Below are positions 1 through 38,846 of a stretch of DNA of 42,124 nt, in pieces. The stretch is taken from IMG/VR virus record IMGVR_UViG_3300029181_000007; one strand, 5' to 3'. The notes under the pieces are model-generated. The model ran no database searches. It was not told the DNA's origin and was given only the letters and a program-made list of their open reading frames with translations. Numbering within the stretch: the stretch's first letter is position 1; every line of letters begins with the position of its first letter. A program made the translations under genes and the position numbers. The DNA is from a virus.

Positions 1-99
1 AAGAAAAAATCTGCCTGCGGTTGTTTCACAGACAGACTTTTCACCGATTTGTCACCAGAACGCACTTGCACCCCGGCGGTAATGCAAACATGCGCGTTT
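1..99. repeat. Terminal direct repeat, copy 1 (identical to 42026-42124)
   Basis: aagaaaaaatctgcctgcgg...aaacatgcgcgttt was read at both ends, and all 99 nt are identical. Confidence 0.95.
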
Positions 100-378
100 G
101 CACGTCTTTTGCGCCATGCGCGGCGTAAAAGTAACGCCTGGGCTGCAAAAACAACTTGCAGGGCTATGGGTACGCCGCTTCCTTTGGCGGGTCGGCACCG
201 CCTTGTAAGCCCTAGCGCTTCACGCACTTGCTCGTGTCTGGAACTGGCTGGCTCAAAAGTTGGGTCAATGAAATCACCTTCCTTTTGAATCAGTTTAACT
301 AGGAGCCTTGAACAGTATAGCAAATCGGTGCGCCGTTGTCAATTATGTTTCAACTTACGTTTTAAAGGAGGTGTGAAA

Positions 379-9872: not shown

Positions 9873-10261
9873 ACCAAGTGTTTTTGGTAATTGGCTCAAC
9901 ACTTTGCTACGTCGGCGGGTTCGGCATAATGATTTGTCTTTTGGGCGTACTAACCGAACTGTGTATCGAAATCTGGGACAGTAATTTTAGACAGATTTGC
10001 GTTCGATTCCAAATCGCGCCGGGCGATGTTTCATACTTTGCCCAGAGTAAAAAAGACATTGAAGCAGCACTTGAGAAACAACGCATTCGGTGGCCGAACA
10101 CGGACGATGCATCTTTCGGGTGGTGGAACTGCCCAAGATGCAGCGCGTCGAACCGATACGTCAGCGAAAGCAAATCGGTTGCATATTGCCGCTGCTGCGG
10201 GCAAGCTGTCGATATGGATTACTACAGGAGGCATGCCAATGATTCGCAGATGGACACCTGA
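9869..10261 (+). CDS. Membrane-anchored zinc-ribbon protein
   Basis: N-terminal TM segment VFLVIGSTLCYVGGFGIMICLLGVL. CPRC...CRCC motif. Confidence 0.5.
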   Translation: MNQVFLVIGSTLCYVGGFGIMICLLGVLTELCIEIWDSNFRQICVRFQIAPGDVSYFAQSKKDIEAALEKQRIRWPNTDDASFGWWNCPRCSASNRYVSESKSVAYCRCCGQAVDMDYYRRHANDSQMDT

Positions 10262-10736
10262 CACCGACACGCAAAAGCCGGGAGAGACAACCGATGAGCA
10301 GAAGATGCGGGCGTGGTTTGAGCGCCTGCCGAAGATGCGGGCACTGATCTGCCAGCAGCAGGAGCACATTGCAAGCCTGCGGAATGCCGCCACCACGACC
10401 ACGTCAGGCACGTCCGGCGCGCCGGGGCGCTCCGGAACCAGCGACAAGGTAGGTCGGAACAGTGACGCCGCCATGGATGCCGAGCAGCATCTGCACGAGC
10501 TGAAATGCCAGTATGCCGAGATGCAGAAGAAAGCCATTGAAGTGGCCTACATGCTCCACGCCGATCCTGCATCCATCCGCCGCAGTAAGTGCATCATCCT
10601 GTGCTATGTTGAAGGCAGGCGGCACGCCGATATCGCGGCAGAAGTCGGCTATTCCAAGCCGTCTCAGGTTTCACGCGCAATTTCGGAAGGCCTGAGCCAG
10701 CTGACAGAGATCGCGAACGAGCTGAATCTTAGTTGA
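10239..10736 (+). CDS. Late-gene transcriptional activator candidate (sigma-70 region-4-like HTH, DUF1492/ArpU/RinA-type position)
   Basis: ATG 7 nt after AGGAGG. C-terminal CIILCYVEGRRHADIAAEVGYSKPSQVSRAISEGLSQL. Last gene before the terminase region. Confidence 0.6.
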   Translation: MIRRWTPDTDTQKPGETTDEQKMRAWFERLPKMRALICQQQEHIASLRNAATTTTSGTSGAPGRSGTSDKVGRNSDAAMDAEQHLHELKCQYAEMQKKAIEVAYMLHADPASIRRSKCIILCYVEGRRHADIAAEVGYSKPSQVSRAISEGLSQLTEIANELNLS

Positions 10737-10818: not shown

Positions 10819-10947
10819 GGTACCATCGGCAAAGCCGAAAAGGCAAACCGATGCACGCAGCCTCCGAAACGTGTCCCTTCTTAGCATTTTCCTTTTCTGT
10901 TTGCAGGTGCTGGGCTTTGCTCTCTTCACGTTTCGCGCTGCTTCTAT

Positions 10948-11021
10948 GCGATGCACTGACACAACGGCAGCCTGCCGCTCGTGAGAGACAGGAGGCGGTT
11001 CGATTCCGTCGTATCGCACCA
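10948..11021 (+). ncRNA. tRNA-sized, CCA-ending tRNA-like element without a decodable anticodon arm
   Basis: 7-bp acceptor (gcgatgc/gtatcgc). T arm ggcgg-ttcgatt-ccgtc. Encoded ACCA. A 3-bp D-like stem with GG in its loop. The anticodon position holds a 22-nt hairpin cctg-ccg-ctc-GTGA-gag-a-cagg with a GNRA loop. Confidence 0.5.
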
Positions 11022-11136
11022 TATGGCGCATGGACTAGACAACTCGCAAGGCCGCACGTGCAACCTCCCGTGCCAAGAAAAGGCCTTAGAATCCTTGCCA
11101 AGGTGTAGCTTTCCTGACAGGATGTGCGCCAATCAA

Positions 11137-11166
11137 CAGCCCCGGCGGCGAACCGGAGCTGTTTTT
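11137..11166 (+). terminator. Rho-independent terminator
   Basis: cagccccgg / ccggagctg stem (one C.A mismatch), 7-nt loop, then TTTTT. Confidence 0.6.
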
Positions 11167-11170
11167 ATAT

Positions 11171-11240
11171 GGCCGCCTGAGCGCAGTTTAGAGCGCGGCG
11201 CGTGTGTGTAGACACGGCTGGTTCGATTCCAAGGGCGGCT
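11171..11240 (+). ncRNA. Degenerate tRNA-like element (70 nt)
   Basis: 7-bp acceptor ggccgcc/ggcggct and D arm gcgc-agtttaga-gcgc. A GGTTCGATTCC T loop sits on only a 3-bp T stem. The anticodon-position stem cgtgt/acacg closes a 6-nt loop gtgtag, and no variable region remains. Confidence 0.4.
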
Positions 11241-11245
11241 TTTAT

Positions 11246-11318
11246 ACTCCGGTAGCTCAAGTGGTAGAGCAGCGGTCTCCAAAACCGCATGTTGCAGGTT
11301 CGAGCCCTGCCGGGAGTG
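11246..11318 (+). tRNA. trnW: tRNA-Trp (anticodon CCA)
   Basis: Full cloverleaf: ta-gctc-aagtggta-gagc, anticodon arm gcggt-CTCCAAA-accgc, and T arm gcagg-ttcgagc-cctgc. The acceptor has one G.G mismatch. No CCA is encoded. Confidence 0.85.
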
Positions 11319-11440
11319 CTTGCGTGCCCTATGAGGGGGCCGCGCAATAGCGGGGCATCTGGCCGCGAAAGTTCCAGATGCAGCAGTGCCTACCGTTTGA
11401 CGCATGTCCAACGAACTGAATGCACGGGTGCTGCTTATAT

Positions 11441-11576
11441 GCCGTCATAGCTCAACTGGAAGAGCGCCGCCCATTTAAGGCGGGACAACGTTGGTGACAC
11501 CACGGGAACATCACTGCACAGCCAACCACTGCGCACATCCATTCCGTGGGTGCTGGTTCAAATCCAGCTGGCGGCA
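11441..11576 (+). ncRNA. tRNA-like gene with a 68-nt insertion in the variable-arm position (anticodon loop CATTTAA)
   Basis: Acceptor gccgtca/tggcggc. D arm gctc-aactggaa-gagc. Anticodon arm ccgcc-catttaa-ggcgg (A at position 33, UUU at 34-36). Nt 11484-11551 are inserted before a perfect T arm gctgg-ttcaaat-ccagc. Confidence 0.5.
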
Positions 11577-11590
11577 CATTCGATATTTTG

Positions 11591-11620
11591 ACCGTTCGGA
11601 TTTTCCGGGCGGTTTTTCTT
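11591..11620 (+). terminator. Rho-independent terminator
   Basis: accgttcgga-ttt-tccgggcggt forms a 10-bp stem (two G.U pairs), followed by TTTTTCTTTT. Confidence 0.6.
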
Positions 11621-11647
11621 TTGCATGAGTTTAGAGAGGTGGTGGCG

Positions 11648-12115
11648 GTGAGCGCAAAGCGGCTGACAGACAGACAGAAAAAGAAGATCATCGCGGATTA
11701 TATCCAGCTGCAAAATTACACCCGCACCGCAAAGCTGAACGACGTTGCAGAAAGCACTGTGCGCAAGATCGTGAAAGATAATCCAAAGTGCGCGGATTTG
11801 TGCGCCTTAAAAAAAGAGCAGAACACGCAGGACATGCTTTCCTACTTAGGCAGCAAGTGCGGGGAAGCACAGAATCTTCTCGGGCTGTACCTTCAGGCGA
11901 TGGCAGACCGTAACAAAATCGCGGAAGCAACGCTGCCGCAGCTGTCCACGGCGTTTGGCACCATCGTGGACAAGTTTGCTATGCTGGGAGACCAGAGCGG
12001 CATAGAAGCCCCGGACGATGGCCTGCTTGAGGCTCTGAGCGCTGCCGCAGACATCAGCCCGCCGGATGACGTGGAGATGCTGCCAGAGGAAGAGGACGAC
12101 AATGCGGAAAAGTAA
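11648..12115 (+). CDS. terS: Terminase small subunit (putative)
   Basis: GTG start 8 nt after GAGAGG. N-terminal HTH AKLNDVAESTVRKIV. Acidic C-terminus. Overlaps the terL start. The longer ORF-track start (11546) would overlap the tRNA-like element. Confidence 0.6.
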   Translation: MSAKRLTDRQKKKIIADYIQLQNYTRTAKLNDVAESTVRKIVKDNPKCADLCALKKEQNTQDMLSYLGSKCGEAQNLLGLYLQAMADRNKIAEATLPQLSTAFGTIVDKFAMLGDQSGIEAPDDGLLEALSAAADISPPDDVEMLPEEEDDNAEK

Positions 12116-17840: not shown

Positions 17841-17914
17841 GCCGTTTTCGCTCAATGGTAGAGCTGCTGATTTGTAACCAGCGGACGCGGGTTCGATTCC
17901 TGCAGACGGCACCA
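17841..17914 (+). tRNA. trnT: tRNA-Thr (anticodon UGU), CCA encoded
   Basis: Acceptor gccgttt/agacggc. D arm gctc-aatggta-gagc. Anticodon arm gctga-TTTGTAA-ccagc. T arm gcggg-ttcgatt-cctgc. Ends ACCA. Confidence 0.85.
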
Positions 17915-37506: not shown

Positions 37507-37554
37507 GGAAGCTGACAAATTGATAATTATTCACGTTGAAACGCTAAATAAATT

Positions 37555-37602
37555 TGATTTGTAATCAGTGGGTTGCAGGTTCAACTCCTGTCACCAGCTC
37601 CA
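37555..37602 (+). other. attP core candidate: 3' two-thirds of a tRNA-Thr(UGU) gene (anticodon loop to CCA)
   Basis: tga-TTTGTAA-tcagt-gggtt-gcagg-ttcaact-cctgt-caccagc-t-cca. No matching 5' acceptor or D arm lies upstream. It is 110 bp from the integrase stop. Confidence 0.65.
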
Positions 37603-37607
37603 AAAAT

Positions 37608-37712: not shown

Positions 37713-38846
37713 TCAGTACTTCATCTTCTGCATTTCCCGCAACAAATATGTCGGGTCGTTGTGTGACACGTACTTGTTTGCCGTTGTGGAGAAATTCTTG
37801 TGACCGAGGATTGCCTGCACAGCGGTTTTTTCCAGACCGCACTCCACCATTTTACTGCTGGCCGTATGACGCAGAGTATGCGGGTGCACCCCCTCTATAT
37901 GGCATTCCTGCATCAGGGCACGGAATTTTGTAGCCACATTGCGTTTGTCCAGCTTTGTGCCGGCCTTGGATGGTATCAGCCATTCGCACCCGCTGTTCAG
38001 CATCCAAAAAGCTACCGTCTTGTAAATCGGTTCAAGAATCGGGATAATGCGGTTTTTGCCCGCCTCGGTCTTTTCGCCGCCCTGCATATAGTGCTCCTTC
38101 AGATGAACGTCCTCACAGCGCATAGAGAGCAGTTCATCAATGCGCATACCGGTGTACAGCAAAACCATGGCGATTTGAGCCGTCTGCCCGAATTTTGGGT
38201 CATTCTGGTAGATGCTGATCTGCTCTATCTCGGCTGCAGTCAGAGTGCGCTCCGCTTTTCCTGTAGCCGCCGGGAGCTGCAGCAGCATGGCGTAATTTTT
38301 GTTTATGATGTCCTGCGCCATTGCCCACTCGCAGATCTGGCTGAAAAGCGTGCGCTGCTTTTCGCAGGAGCTGCGGGAGAGCCCTTTTTCCACCATTGCG
38401 TCAATGACCTGTTGATAATCTGCCGCTTTTAAGTCCCGCAATTGTCGGTCGTATAGCGGCGCAGCCTTTGCATAGGCCAGCTCGTACCCCTTTTGCATGT
38501 CCGTGCTAAGCTTGTCAAATTTGGGCTGCGCTTTCCATTGGACATAGGCATCCGCAAAGGTGCATTTCAGACGCGCTGCGGGGGTGTTCTGGGCGTTGTA
38601 AGCGTCCAGCGCTTGTACTGCTTCGCCTGCCGTTTCAAACGTGCCCAGAACATCTCTGCGGGCTGTGAGTGCAACATACGGTCTTGCCCGCGTCCCACTC
38701 AGTTTATACACGCTGCCGCTGCCCTTTGGACGGCGGCGCTTTTTTCTTTGCTGCGGGGCGGCTTCCGGCTGTTTCTTCCCGCACCACGGACAAAAAGAAG
38801 CGCCATCCGGGATCTCCTTCCGGCAACATGGTCTTATGCACTTCAT
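37713..38846 (-). CDS. int: Tyrosine site-specific integrase with N-terminal zinc ribbon
   Basis: CCRKEIPDGASFCPWCGK. Catalytic-region motifs TGMRIDELLSM (R), HTLRHT (H-x-x-R), AILGH and ANKYV (Y). Confidence 0.9.
   Translation of the reverse strand: MKCIRPCCRKEIPDGASFCPWCGKKQPEAAPQQRKKRRRPKGSGSVYKLSGTRARPYVALTARRDVLGTFETAGEAVQALDAYNAQNTPAARLKCTFADAYVQWKAQPKFDKLSTDMQKGYELAYAKAAPLYDRQLRDLKAADYQQVIDAMVEKGLSRSSCEKQRTLFSQICEWAMAQDIINKNYAMLLQLPAATGKAERTLTAAEIEQISIYQNDPKFGQTAQIAMVLLYTGMRIDELLSMRCEDVHLKEHYMQGGEKTEAGKNRIIPILEPIYKTVAFWMLNSGCEWLIPSKAGTKLDKRNVATKFRALMQECHIEGVHPHTLRHTASSKMVECGLEKTAVQAILGHKNFSTTANKYVSHNDPTYLLREMQKMKY

Follow-up and report, generated by a model that had tools for sequence, protein, structure and literature searches.

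A conserved tRNA-Lys(UUU)-like RNA gene with A33 and a long structured variable region in temperate Faecalibacterium phages

The virus record IMGVR_UViG_3300029181_000007 of IMG/VR comprises 42,124 nucleotides (nt) of viral DNA, which we refer to as the window. It displays the gene content of a typical temperate siphovirus, with an integrase, a repressor, an antirepressor, SSB, DnaD-like, methyltransferase and RusA proteins, a sigma-like late regulator, terS/terL, a portal and a Mu-F-like protein, and it has no cultured relative in INPHARED. Between the late regulator gene and terS lies a tRNA-Lys(UUU)-like RNA gene with an A at position 33 and an oversized variable region, hereafter the element, whose parts are listed in Table 1. 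An initial annotation had described a tRNA-like gene at this place with four intact arms, a 68-nt insert, A33 and the anticodon UUU, and the sequence is as it had stated. The Rfam tRNA covariance model aligns with the gene from end to end (model positions 1–71) at 47.8 bits, compared with a gathering score of 29, and with an E value of 2.6e-7 for the whole window. In this alignment the 68 nt form an insertion that follows model position 44/45 and precedes the last variable-loop bases.

The element adopts the 7-base-pair (bp) acceptor stem, the 4-bp D stem, the 5-bp anticodon stem with its 7-nt loop, the 5-bp T stem and the TTCRA-type T loop of the canonical cloverleaf, and these helices are 99–100% paired in 105 homologs. 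The D stem is paired in 100% of these sequences, with variation confined to D-loop positions 16, 17 and 20. Acceptor and T stems retain the normal 7/5 lengths, not 8/4 or 9/3, and the core tertiary positions of tRNA are all intact. The departures from a canonical elongator tRNA concern position 33 and the variable region. Instead of U33 there is an A, at 11473 in the window and likewise in all of the at least 197 IMG/VR phage loci in which the element was found. The variable region, which spans 4–5 nt in class I and 10 to ~24 nt in class II tRNAs, separates the anticodon and T stems by exactly 68 nt in the window (11484–11551, between positions 45 and 46) and by 69 or 82–87 nt in relatives. 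For the 136 nt, RNAfold predicts a cloverleaf plus a hairpin within the insert (−53.6 kcal/mol, z = −2.9). ARAGORN does not call the element; its calls in the window are restricted to tRNA-Trp and tRNA-Thr, with no tmRNA, and no Rfam family other than tRNA matches the element even at E values up to 10.

The insert opens with a 16-nt linker, whose consensus G-ACAACGYUGGUGACA is common to the three types of insert introduced below and is as conserved as the tRNA core. The terminal pairing of about 9 bp with one bulge that the initial annotation had proposed for the insert was essentially right. It corresponds to the stem P1, to which RNAfold adds two further pairs across a bulged A. The stretch beyond P1 had been taken for a C/A-rich, single-stranded loop of about 33 nt; it is instead mostly helical, and a hairpin is kept there with different stems in the other insert types. 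Similarly, what had looked like a direct repeat, CACTGC(G)CACA, turns out to be the two strands of the quasi-palindromic hairpin P2, with one A.C among its 7 bp and a CCAACCA cap. The 3′ end of the insert (11542–11551) would, by standard tRNA numbering, supply the core positions 46–48. As modelled, the insert domain is a conserved 16-nt single-stranded linker followed by a long bent hairpin (P1, internal loop and P2) that ends in an apical YNAACCA loop.

Stem sequences differ between the insert types while the pairing is kept. Type C arms have CATCA/TGATG in P1 and TGCGCA/TGCGCA in P2, and the P2 stems of type B are GGC/GCC and GGA/TCC. RNAalifold folds the type B arm into one long irregular hairpin, with a 9-bp P1 containing a bulged U, a 12-nt asymmetric loop, a 4-bp helix, a 6-nt bulge, a 6-bp P2 and a 10-nt loop. 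Every apical loop carries AACCA in near-invariant form, the rare variants being AGCCA, AACCG, AACTA and AACAA. Single loci show larger rearrangements: in L146 the 3′ strand of the internal loop has been swapped for AGTGATG, the exact complement of the 5′ strand, which renders the loop fully paired, and in L147 the P2 hairpin is gone via a deletion between both P2 strands. Self-cleaving ribozymes, introns and known small RNAs were also considered for the insert and rejected, as an Rfam scan of 11100–11700 gave weak chance matches only. A bacterial group I intron, with a core usually above 200 nt and a location in the anticodon loop, does not fit a 68-nt insert in the variable region, nor did any family of introns or ribozymes match when E values up to 10 were allowed.

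The IMG/VR scans were pattern-based, so that all counts are lower bounds and remote relatives may be missed. They yielded 117 distinct element sequences, with the anticodon loop CATTTAA in every locus. A 23-mer from inside the insert, searched with the anticodon loop left unconstrained, recurs exactly in at least 119 IMG/VR contigs, all of them A33, and further loci were gathered with patterns that combined the loop with either the D arm or the linker. Type A inserts (68 nt) are found in 133 loci including the window, type B inserts (82–87 nt) in 42 and type C inserts (69–70 nt) in 17. The initial annotation had envisaged that related phages might have the same tRNA in a U33 form lacking the insert. 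No such gene was found, and no copy in IMG/VR combines U33 with the linker; a metagenome scan for the linker with any U33 anticodon, which at 14 fixed bases was too loose, returned at least 120 random matches with no tRNA among them. In a scan of genomes, the element was detected in two Faecalibacterium metagenome-assembled genomes (MAGs) only, again with A33. Because the scan returned it from no other genomes, we assign its phages to the host genus Faecalibacterium. One MAG copy (L122) keeps A33, with a variable region collapsed to 13 nt and a D loop without GG, and looks like a deletion derivative; this short-armed version is absent from IMG/VR and known from the single MAG copy.

Covariation was examined in an alignment of 105 distinct sequences (A1) with 500 shuffles. 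The full structure is 94.3% paired, compared with 32–43% when the 3′ partners are slid by 1–3 columns. Double-sided changes occur at 12 pairs, as opposed to 5.4 ± 0.9 in the shuffles, none of which reaches 12 (0/500). Within the core, acceptor pair 5-68 is found as UG, UA or CG and pair 6-67 as CG, UG or UA, the latter including a double change; C28-G42 and C30-G40 of the anticodon stem each change to A-U; and T-stem pair 51-63 is U-A in 65 sequences, C-G in 32 and U-G in 8. In the arm, P1 displays double changes across the types (61-108 CG/AU, 62-107 AU/UA and 64-105 GC/AU). Within type B four arm pairs covary. In this type, pair number five of P1 alternates between AU and GC (columns 64-124 of alignment A2), and the pair after the bulge (A2 column 123 with 66) takes the forms GC, CG and UG. 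Folding, database search and a search for compensatory changes, all suggested with the initial annotation, agree, with a predicted cloverleaf plus hairpin and a recurrence across the loci with covarying stems that goes far beyond chance.

Compensatory changes throughout the structure rule out both a decaying pseudogene and a purely DNA-level signal. The random substitutions, broken helices and indels of a pseudogene are not what the alignment displays, with 94% pairing, 12 double-compensated pairs and an insert as conserved as the core. Judged by this pattern of conservation, the element is a selectively maintained structured RNA gene of temperate Faecalibacterium siphoviruses, with an intact L-shape core, a fixed A33 and a variable-arm domain.

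A further interaction may connect the two most conserved parts of the insert. The UGGU of the linker (52–55) is complementary to the apical ACCA (85–88); this pairing holds in 99.3% of cases and contains one double change from U-A to C-G along with several single changes that wobble pairing tolerates, and a pseudoknot between the two appears plausible from the alignment. By our own geometric reasoning, it would need the arm to fold back at the internal loop, and the roughly equal helix lengths on either side of this loop in types A and B fit such a fold-back. An alternative register, GUUGG:CCAAC, gives 36 mismatching cells and was rejected as worse than UGGU:ACCA. A local mini-hairpin G50-C58, hinted at by a co-change of G to A and C to U, is broken by variation at U51. 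A role of the linker as a T-box-like UGGN element was rejected or left as speculation, as the discriminator does not covary with U55.

The anticodon loop CAUUUAA equals the canonical tRNA-Lys loop CUUUUAA save for the change of U33 to A, and retains UUU, with U35 and U36, and A37. ARAGORN names the short-armed relative L122 tRNA-Lys(ttt), and canonical phage tRNA-Lys genes are followed by exactly the 3′ flank that the window element has (CATTCGATATTTTGACC with the terminator after it). The loop match, the ARAGORN call and the common 3′ flank support an ancestry of the element in tRNA-Lys(UUU), in line with the identity first suggested for it. Within the same family of loci there are 29 tRNA-Lys(UUU) genes of canonical form, which have U33 and a variable loop of 5 nt; some of them lie ~370 nt downstream of the element. 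Because these genes co-occur with it, the element is not simply the tRNA-Lys of the phage.

All copies of types B and C have U as the discriminator. Among type A copies, A is confined to those followed by the canonical-tRNA flank, such as the window copy, and the others have U. Since A73 tracks that flank, the window A73 and 3′ flank probably stem from recombination with the neighbouring canonical tRNA. The discriminator does not appear, from this distribution, to be under strong constraint. In one related locus (L076, 9622–9977, + strand), a hairpin and a small open reading frame (ORF) of ~75 amino acids (MFERLKELICDMAKFL...) lie between the element and the canonical tRNA-Lys, and many relatives have a likewise arrangement before tRNA-Lys or tRNA-Met. 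The window does not contain such a segment and has apparently recombined between the 3′ acceptor strands of both tRNA genes.

Substitutions at position 33 are found beyond this family. A search of IMG/VR for tRNA-Lys-like genes that combine CATTTAA with a short variable region matched 11 loci (L201–L211) on diverse contigs, about 10 of which are otherwise normal tRNA genes. Six of these short-armed A33 genes were checked against Rfam and scored 50–68 bits; in L203 the proper anticodon stem is not formed. The A33 gene of L208 (5141–5214, − strand) differs little from the canonical tRNA-Lys that these Faecalibacterium phages carry. Another example is found in L210 (779–851, − strand), and L204 and L211 have a 17-nt variable region. 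Judging from these genes, A33 arose independently in about ten otherwise normal phage tRNA-Lys genes. C33 (CCTTTAA) outnumbers A33: 31 distinct sequences with it come from at least 120 loci, and among them is a large E. coli lambdoid/Stx-associated prophage family in 267 phage records, some of them annotated as tRNA-Lys. The E. coli C33 gene (loci L212–L331, for example L331 and L323; LC567822.1) has an apparent 9-bp acceptor stem (ACCGTCACC/GGTGGCGGT), a non-standard D arm and an encoded CCA. G33 was seen once. A scan returned no A33 or C33 tRNA-Lys-like gene with an intermediate arm of 25–55 nt, apart from one chance match in coding DNA. Because intermediate arms were not found, we regard the substitution at position 33 as recurrent in phage tRNA-Lys and the giant arm as specific to the Faecalibacterium-phage family.

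The element is the last unit of a non-coding cluster of ~450 nt between the sigma-like late regulator gene (10026–10736) and terS/terL. The cluster comprises, in order, a motif with a terminator-like hairpin, a degenerate tRNA-like RNA (b), tRNA-Trp, a spacer RNA, the element and a terminator. The arm of tRNA-like b at the place of the anticodon occurs in two unrelated versions, one with a length-variable (GT)n run, and the only Rfam match of this RNA is to tRNA-Sec, at 17 bits. The spacer RNA has no Rfam match and is itself structured: its RNAalifold consensus contains 9 pairs with double compensatory changes. In the hairpin GCATCYGG/CCRGATGC, a C-G pair changes to U-A in 11 sequences and a G-C pair to A-U in 8, and the long terminal stem has 5 covarying pairs around an interior that is replaced by unrelated sequence in some loci. 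The model also allows a possible H-type pseudoknot in the spacer, GCGG/CCGC with the variant GCCG/CGGC. TTAT(AT) precedes each tRNA or tRNA-like unit of the cluster, which would fit a common context for processing by RNase P. The terL gene is ~96% identical in 126 of 150 loci, as opposed to ~31% for the upstream regulator, indicating that the cluster moves together with the structural genes. The 30 window ORFs that were scanned against Pfam or PHROGs include no tRNA-related enzyme.

Table 1. Coordinates of the element, its parts and the other units of the cluster in the window
Feature	Position	Strand	Remarks
tRNA-Lys(UUU)-like RNA gene, whole	11441-11576	+	136 nt; Rfam RF00005 match; discriminator A at 11576; CCA not encoded
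Acceptor stem, 5′ strand GCCGTCA	11441-11447	+	partner TGGCGGC 11569-11575; 7 bp, one G-U
D arm GCTC-AACTGGAA-GAGC	11450-11465	+	has G18 G19
Anticodon arm CCGCC-CAUUUAA-GGCGG	11467-11483	+	A33 = 11473; UUU = 11474-11476; A37 = 11477
Conserved linker G-ACAACGUUGGUGACA	11484-11499	+	first 16 nt of insert; UGGU at 11492-11495
P1 stem, 5′ strand CCACGGGA	11500-11507	+	partner TTCCGTGG 11542-11549; 8 bp, C60-G109 to A67-U102
Internal loop, 5′ side ACAUCAC	11508-11514	+	opposite CAUCCA 11536-11541
P2 hairpin	11515-11535	+	TGCACAG (11515-11521), apical CCAACCA (11522-11528), CTGCGCA (11529-11535); 7 bp, one A.C
P1 3′ strand + GU	11542-11551	+	G110 invariant; U111 as U48; near-invariant columns
T arm GCTGG-TTCAAAT-CCAGC	11552-11568	+	5-bp stem
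Conserved motif GGATGTGCGCCAA	11120-11132	+	strongly conserved, also written GGATGTGCG(C/T)CAA; sequence further upstream differs completely between loci
Terminator-like hairpin after motif	11137-11166	+	stem covaries between loci
Degenerate tRNA-like RNA b	11171-11240	+	acceptor GGCCGCC/GGCGGCT and D arm GCGC-AGTTTRGA-GCGC good; T loop TTCGATT, 3 good stem pairs
tRNA-Trp(CCA)	11246-11319	+	always directly upstream in same cluster
Structured spacer RNA	11320-11440	+	121 nt; ends TTATAT just 5′ of element
Intrinsic-terminator-like hairpin + T run	11590-11614	+	closes cluster before terS; same flank after canonical tRNA-Lys in relatives

Several other RNA features were observed in the window and in a related locus. 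A tRNA-like piece at 10947–11023 (+ strand) has the acceptor GCGATGC/GTATCGC, the T arm GGCGG-TTCGATT-CCGTC and an encoded ACCA, whereas canonical D and anticodon arms are lacking; Rfam places it with tRNA-Sec at 18.7 bits, and its conservation among related loci is limited to the 3′ part. In one related phage (L016, 5780–5856, + strand), ARAGORN assigns a 4-base anticodon (attg) to a tRNA that immediately precedes tRNA-Trp. A FuFi-1 RNA (RF02986, 69 bits, E 1e-12), one hairpin of which is enlarged by a long insertion, lies at the left end of the window (5–227, − strand). The intergenic region beside the integrase gene (37713–38846, − strand) contains, at 37545–37605 (+ strand), a partial tRNA-Thr(UGU) made up of its 3′ two-thirds, starting at the anticodon arm and ending with CCA, which is presumably the phage attachment site (attP). 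The phage also encodes its own, different and complete tRNA-Thr(UGU) inside the structural module (17841–17914, + strand). Such a combination of an attP fragment and a phage-encoded tRNA-Thr recalls "tRNA-dependent lysogeny" (PMC10865867). An integration-site reading of the element was rejected, as the attP with the tRNA-Thr fragment sits by the integrase at ~37545–37605.

We tentatively favor, with clearly less than even confidence, that the element acts as an anti-defence variant of tRNA-Lys or as a decoy against nucleases directed at tRNA-Lys, by analogy with known systems. A decoy had also been among the suggestions of the initial annotation. Nucleases of abortive infection have tRNA-Lys(UUU) as their classical target: PrrC cuts tRNA-Lys immediately 3′ of U33 and RloC excises the wobble base U34 (PMC2610378), whereas AriB of PARIS cuts tRNA-Lys at 40/41 and an uncleavable T5 tRNA-Lys variant escapes it (PMC11464382). 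Anticodon-loop mutations in phage tRNAs have been hypothesized to serve nuclease evasion (PMC10264068). Like the nuclease-evading phage tRNAs of these reports, the element is encoded by a phage, harbors the anticodon of a nuclease-targeted tRNA and has a substitution near a known cleavage site; its Lys(UUU) loop with U33 changed to A makes it resemble a phage isoacceptor with an altered anticodon stem-loop. That A33 and C33 have arisen repeatedly and independently in phage tRNA-Lys fits the idea of evasion. The known examples differ in being ordinary tRNAs of 75–77 nt, none with an enlarged variable region, and the discriminator of the element is not fixed.

Probably, tRNA-like b, tRNA-Trp, the spacer RNA, the element and the terminator are transcribed as one short non-coding cluster. 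The element would then be excised by RNase P and RNase Z and receive its CCA from the CCA enzyme. The change of U33 would alter the nucleotide at the PrrC-type cleavage junction. The arm might either block docking of the nuclease or serve as a handle that binds or sequesters the nuclease or another tRNA-binding protein, and the RNA may either still decode AAA/AAG or be purely a decoy. Engineered tRNAs with aptamer-tipped variable arms (V-arms) stay active and can be sequestered by the cognate protein (PMC7590224).

Several points weigh against this interpretation. The link to defence is drawn by analogy only. Evasion would leave the large, sequence-conserved arm unexplained, because A33 alone would suffice, to judge from the short-armed A33 tRNAs. 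From studies of U33 substitutions, weaker decoding is to be expected with a purine at this position, and the variable discriminator argues against strong selection for charging by lysyl-tRNA synthetase, as far as the sequences tell. The family is also shallow, and because relatives are ~90% identical, the invariance of single bases carries limited weight; the structural evidence rests mostly on the three insert types. The UGGU:ACCA pseudoknot is supported by one double change and wobble-compatible transitions, and it is weakly tested because both partners are nearly invariant.

The main rival, possible if on the unlikely side, is that the element is a non-decoding tRNA-like scaffold, in which the fold provides stability and processing by RNases P and Z, A33 blocks a role in translation, and the payload is the arm domain, binding a protein or RNA in late development. 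The initial annotation had thought of a scaffold displaying a single-stranded bait. The bait part does not agree with the hairpin found in this region, and a scaffold that displays a structured arm stays a live possibility. It would account for the linker and apical loop being the most conserved parts of the insert, kept while the stems are replaced, and for a discriminator that varies; the non-canonical tRNA-like RNA b and the covarying spacer RNA in the same cluster, together with TTAT(AT) before every unit as a sign of shared processing, point in the same direction. For a mere scaffold, though, the invariant Lys-specific anticodon loop and the covarying anticodon stem would be needless. A possible pairing within the cluster was also counted in its favor, as GGATGTGCGC (11120–11129), ahead of the upstream terminator hairpin, forms a 10-nt complement to GCGCACATCC of the arm (11531–11540). 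We rejected this pairing of the arm with the upstream motif GGATGTGCGYCAA, as ~0.04 such matches are expected by chance, it reaches 10 nt in type A only and 6 nt in type B, and it lacks compensatory changes. Known relatives in spirit are tmRNA, the bacterial Y-RNA-like YrlA and the stable non-tRNA RNAs of the T4 tRNA cluster. In common with such RNAs, the element has a tRNA-like fold, lies in or near phage tRNA genes, is probably processed by tRNA enzymes and would function outside plain decoding. In tmRNA and YrlA, however, the anticodon arm is replaced by other domains, whereas in the element this arm is perfect and it is the variable region that has expanded.

Rather unlikely would be a natural tRNA–aptamer fusion. 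Here a tRNA-Lys chassis would carry a pseudoknotted, fold-back arm that captures a host protein, such as a tRNA-Lys-directed nuclease or another tRNA-binding enzyme, while A33 would prevent cutting or decoding; the element would be one unit of a "tRNA-like operon" together with tRNA-like b and the spacer RNA. Engineered aptamer-tagged tRNAs and "tRNA scaffolds" similarly place a structured module on the variable arm, and the engineered arm binds a protein, sequestering the tRNA or recruiting a synthetase (PMC7590224). These constructs are synthetic, and the element would be their natural counterpart.

It is improbable that the element is a working tRNA with special decoding or charging, whose arm acts as a class II arm or "pseudo-anticodon" that recruits a synthetase or factor, AAA/AAG being read differently (as another amino acid, by frameshifting or through regulated supply), in a manner similar to codon reassignment by purine-33 and long-arm tRNAs. 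Class II arms reach some 20-odd nt. Similarly to class II tRNAs (Ser, Leu, Tyr and Sec), the element has an extra helical arm exactly between positions 45 and 46 of a canonical cloverleaf with its core tertiary positions intact, and natural class II arms are described as having "10 or more nucleotides" (PMC7609411). In class II tRNAs, however, a simple stem-loop starts 0–2 nt after position 45 and accompanies a Ser, Leu, Tyr or Sec anticodon. The element instead has a 68–87-nt domain with an unpaired linker (14–16 nt), a two-helix arm of 52–70 nt, an internal loop, a conserved apical loop and the anticodon UUU. Long arms combined with anticodons of amino acids other than Ser or Leu do occur in allo-tRNAs and nematode nev-tRNAs (PMC3333845, PMC5389517 and PMC7609411); moreover, the ribosome tolerates aptamer-tipped V-arms (PMC7590224), and AAA makes up 41% of the Lys codons of the phage. 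Opposed to this, a U/A discriminator fits neither Ser (G73) nor a fixed Leu or Tyr identity (PMC9976931), and there is no sign of recoding, the window genes being open in the standard code. The apical loop was rejected as a pseudo-anticodon, as its geometry is unlike that of an anticodon loop, with a variable position 2 and a pyrimidine at "37".

That the element is an insertion-inactivated tRNA-Lys pseudogene, passively carried, as the initial annotation had also suggested, is barely credible. ARAGORN fails to call it, either A33 or a 68-nt insert should by itself impair a normal tRNA, and decayed forms exist in L147, which has lost P2, and in the MAG copy L122 with its collapsed arm and damaged D loop. 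Yet the insert is present in at least 197 loci and three divergent versions, which speak against near-clonal copies; it is conserved like the core, its architecture is kept by compensatory changes, and no U33 or insert-free counterpart was found. A DNA-level signal that merely resembles a tRNA (a pac site, a promoter or operator of the late regulator, or a recombination site) has a negligible probability, since the position between the late regulator gene and terS/terL and the signs of recombination at the 3′ end are outweighed by compensatory changes that keep RNA helices, including G-U intermediates, needless for a DNA-binding site, and by the real attP elsewhere.

Targeted literature searches found no description of an equivalent, and a review of natural non-canonical tRNAs contains nothing comparable (PMC7609411). 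If expressed, the element would extend the structural range of natural tRNAs beyond that review, with a structured variable arm of 68–87 nt and a fixed purine at position 33. Should the arm be a protein-capturing module, the RNA would be a tRNA-like effector of a new class. As A33 and C33 recur in phage tRNA-Lys genes that are unrelated, a general rule may be that position 33 is a battleground between phages and anticodon nucleases. The gene escapes tRNA finders and has therefore probably gone unannotated in hundreds of genomes of gut phages. For phages of Faecalibacterium, one of the major commensals of the human gut, the element also offers a concrete and abundant candidate, open to testing, for counter-defence by RNA or for mimicry of tRNA.

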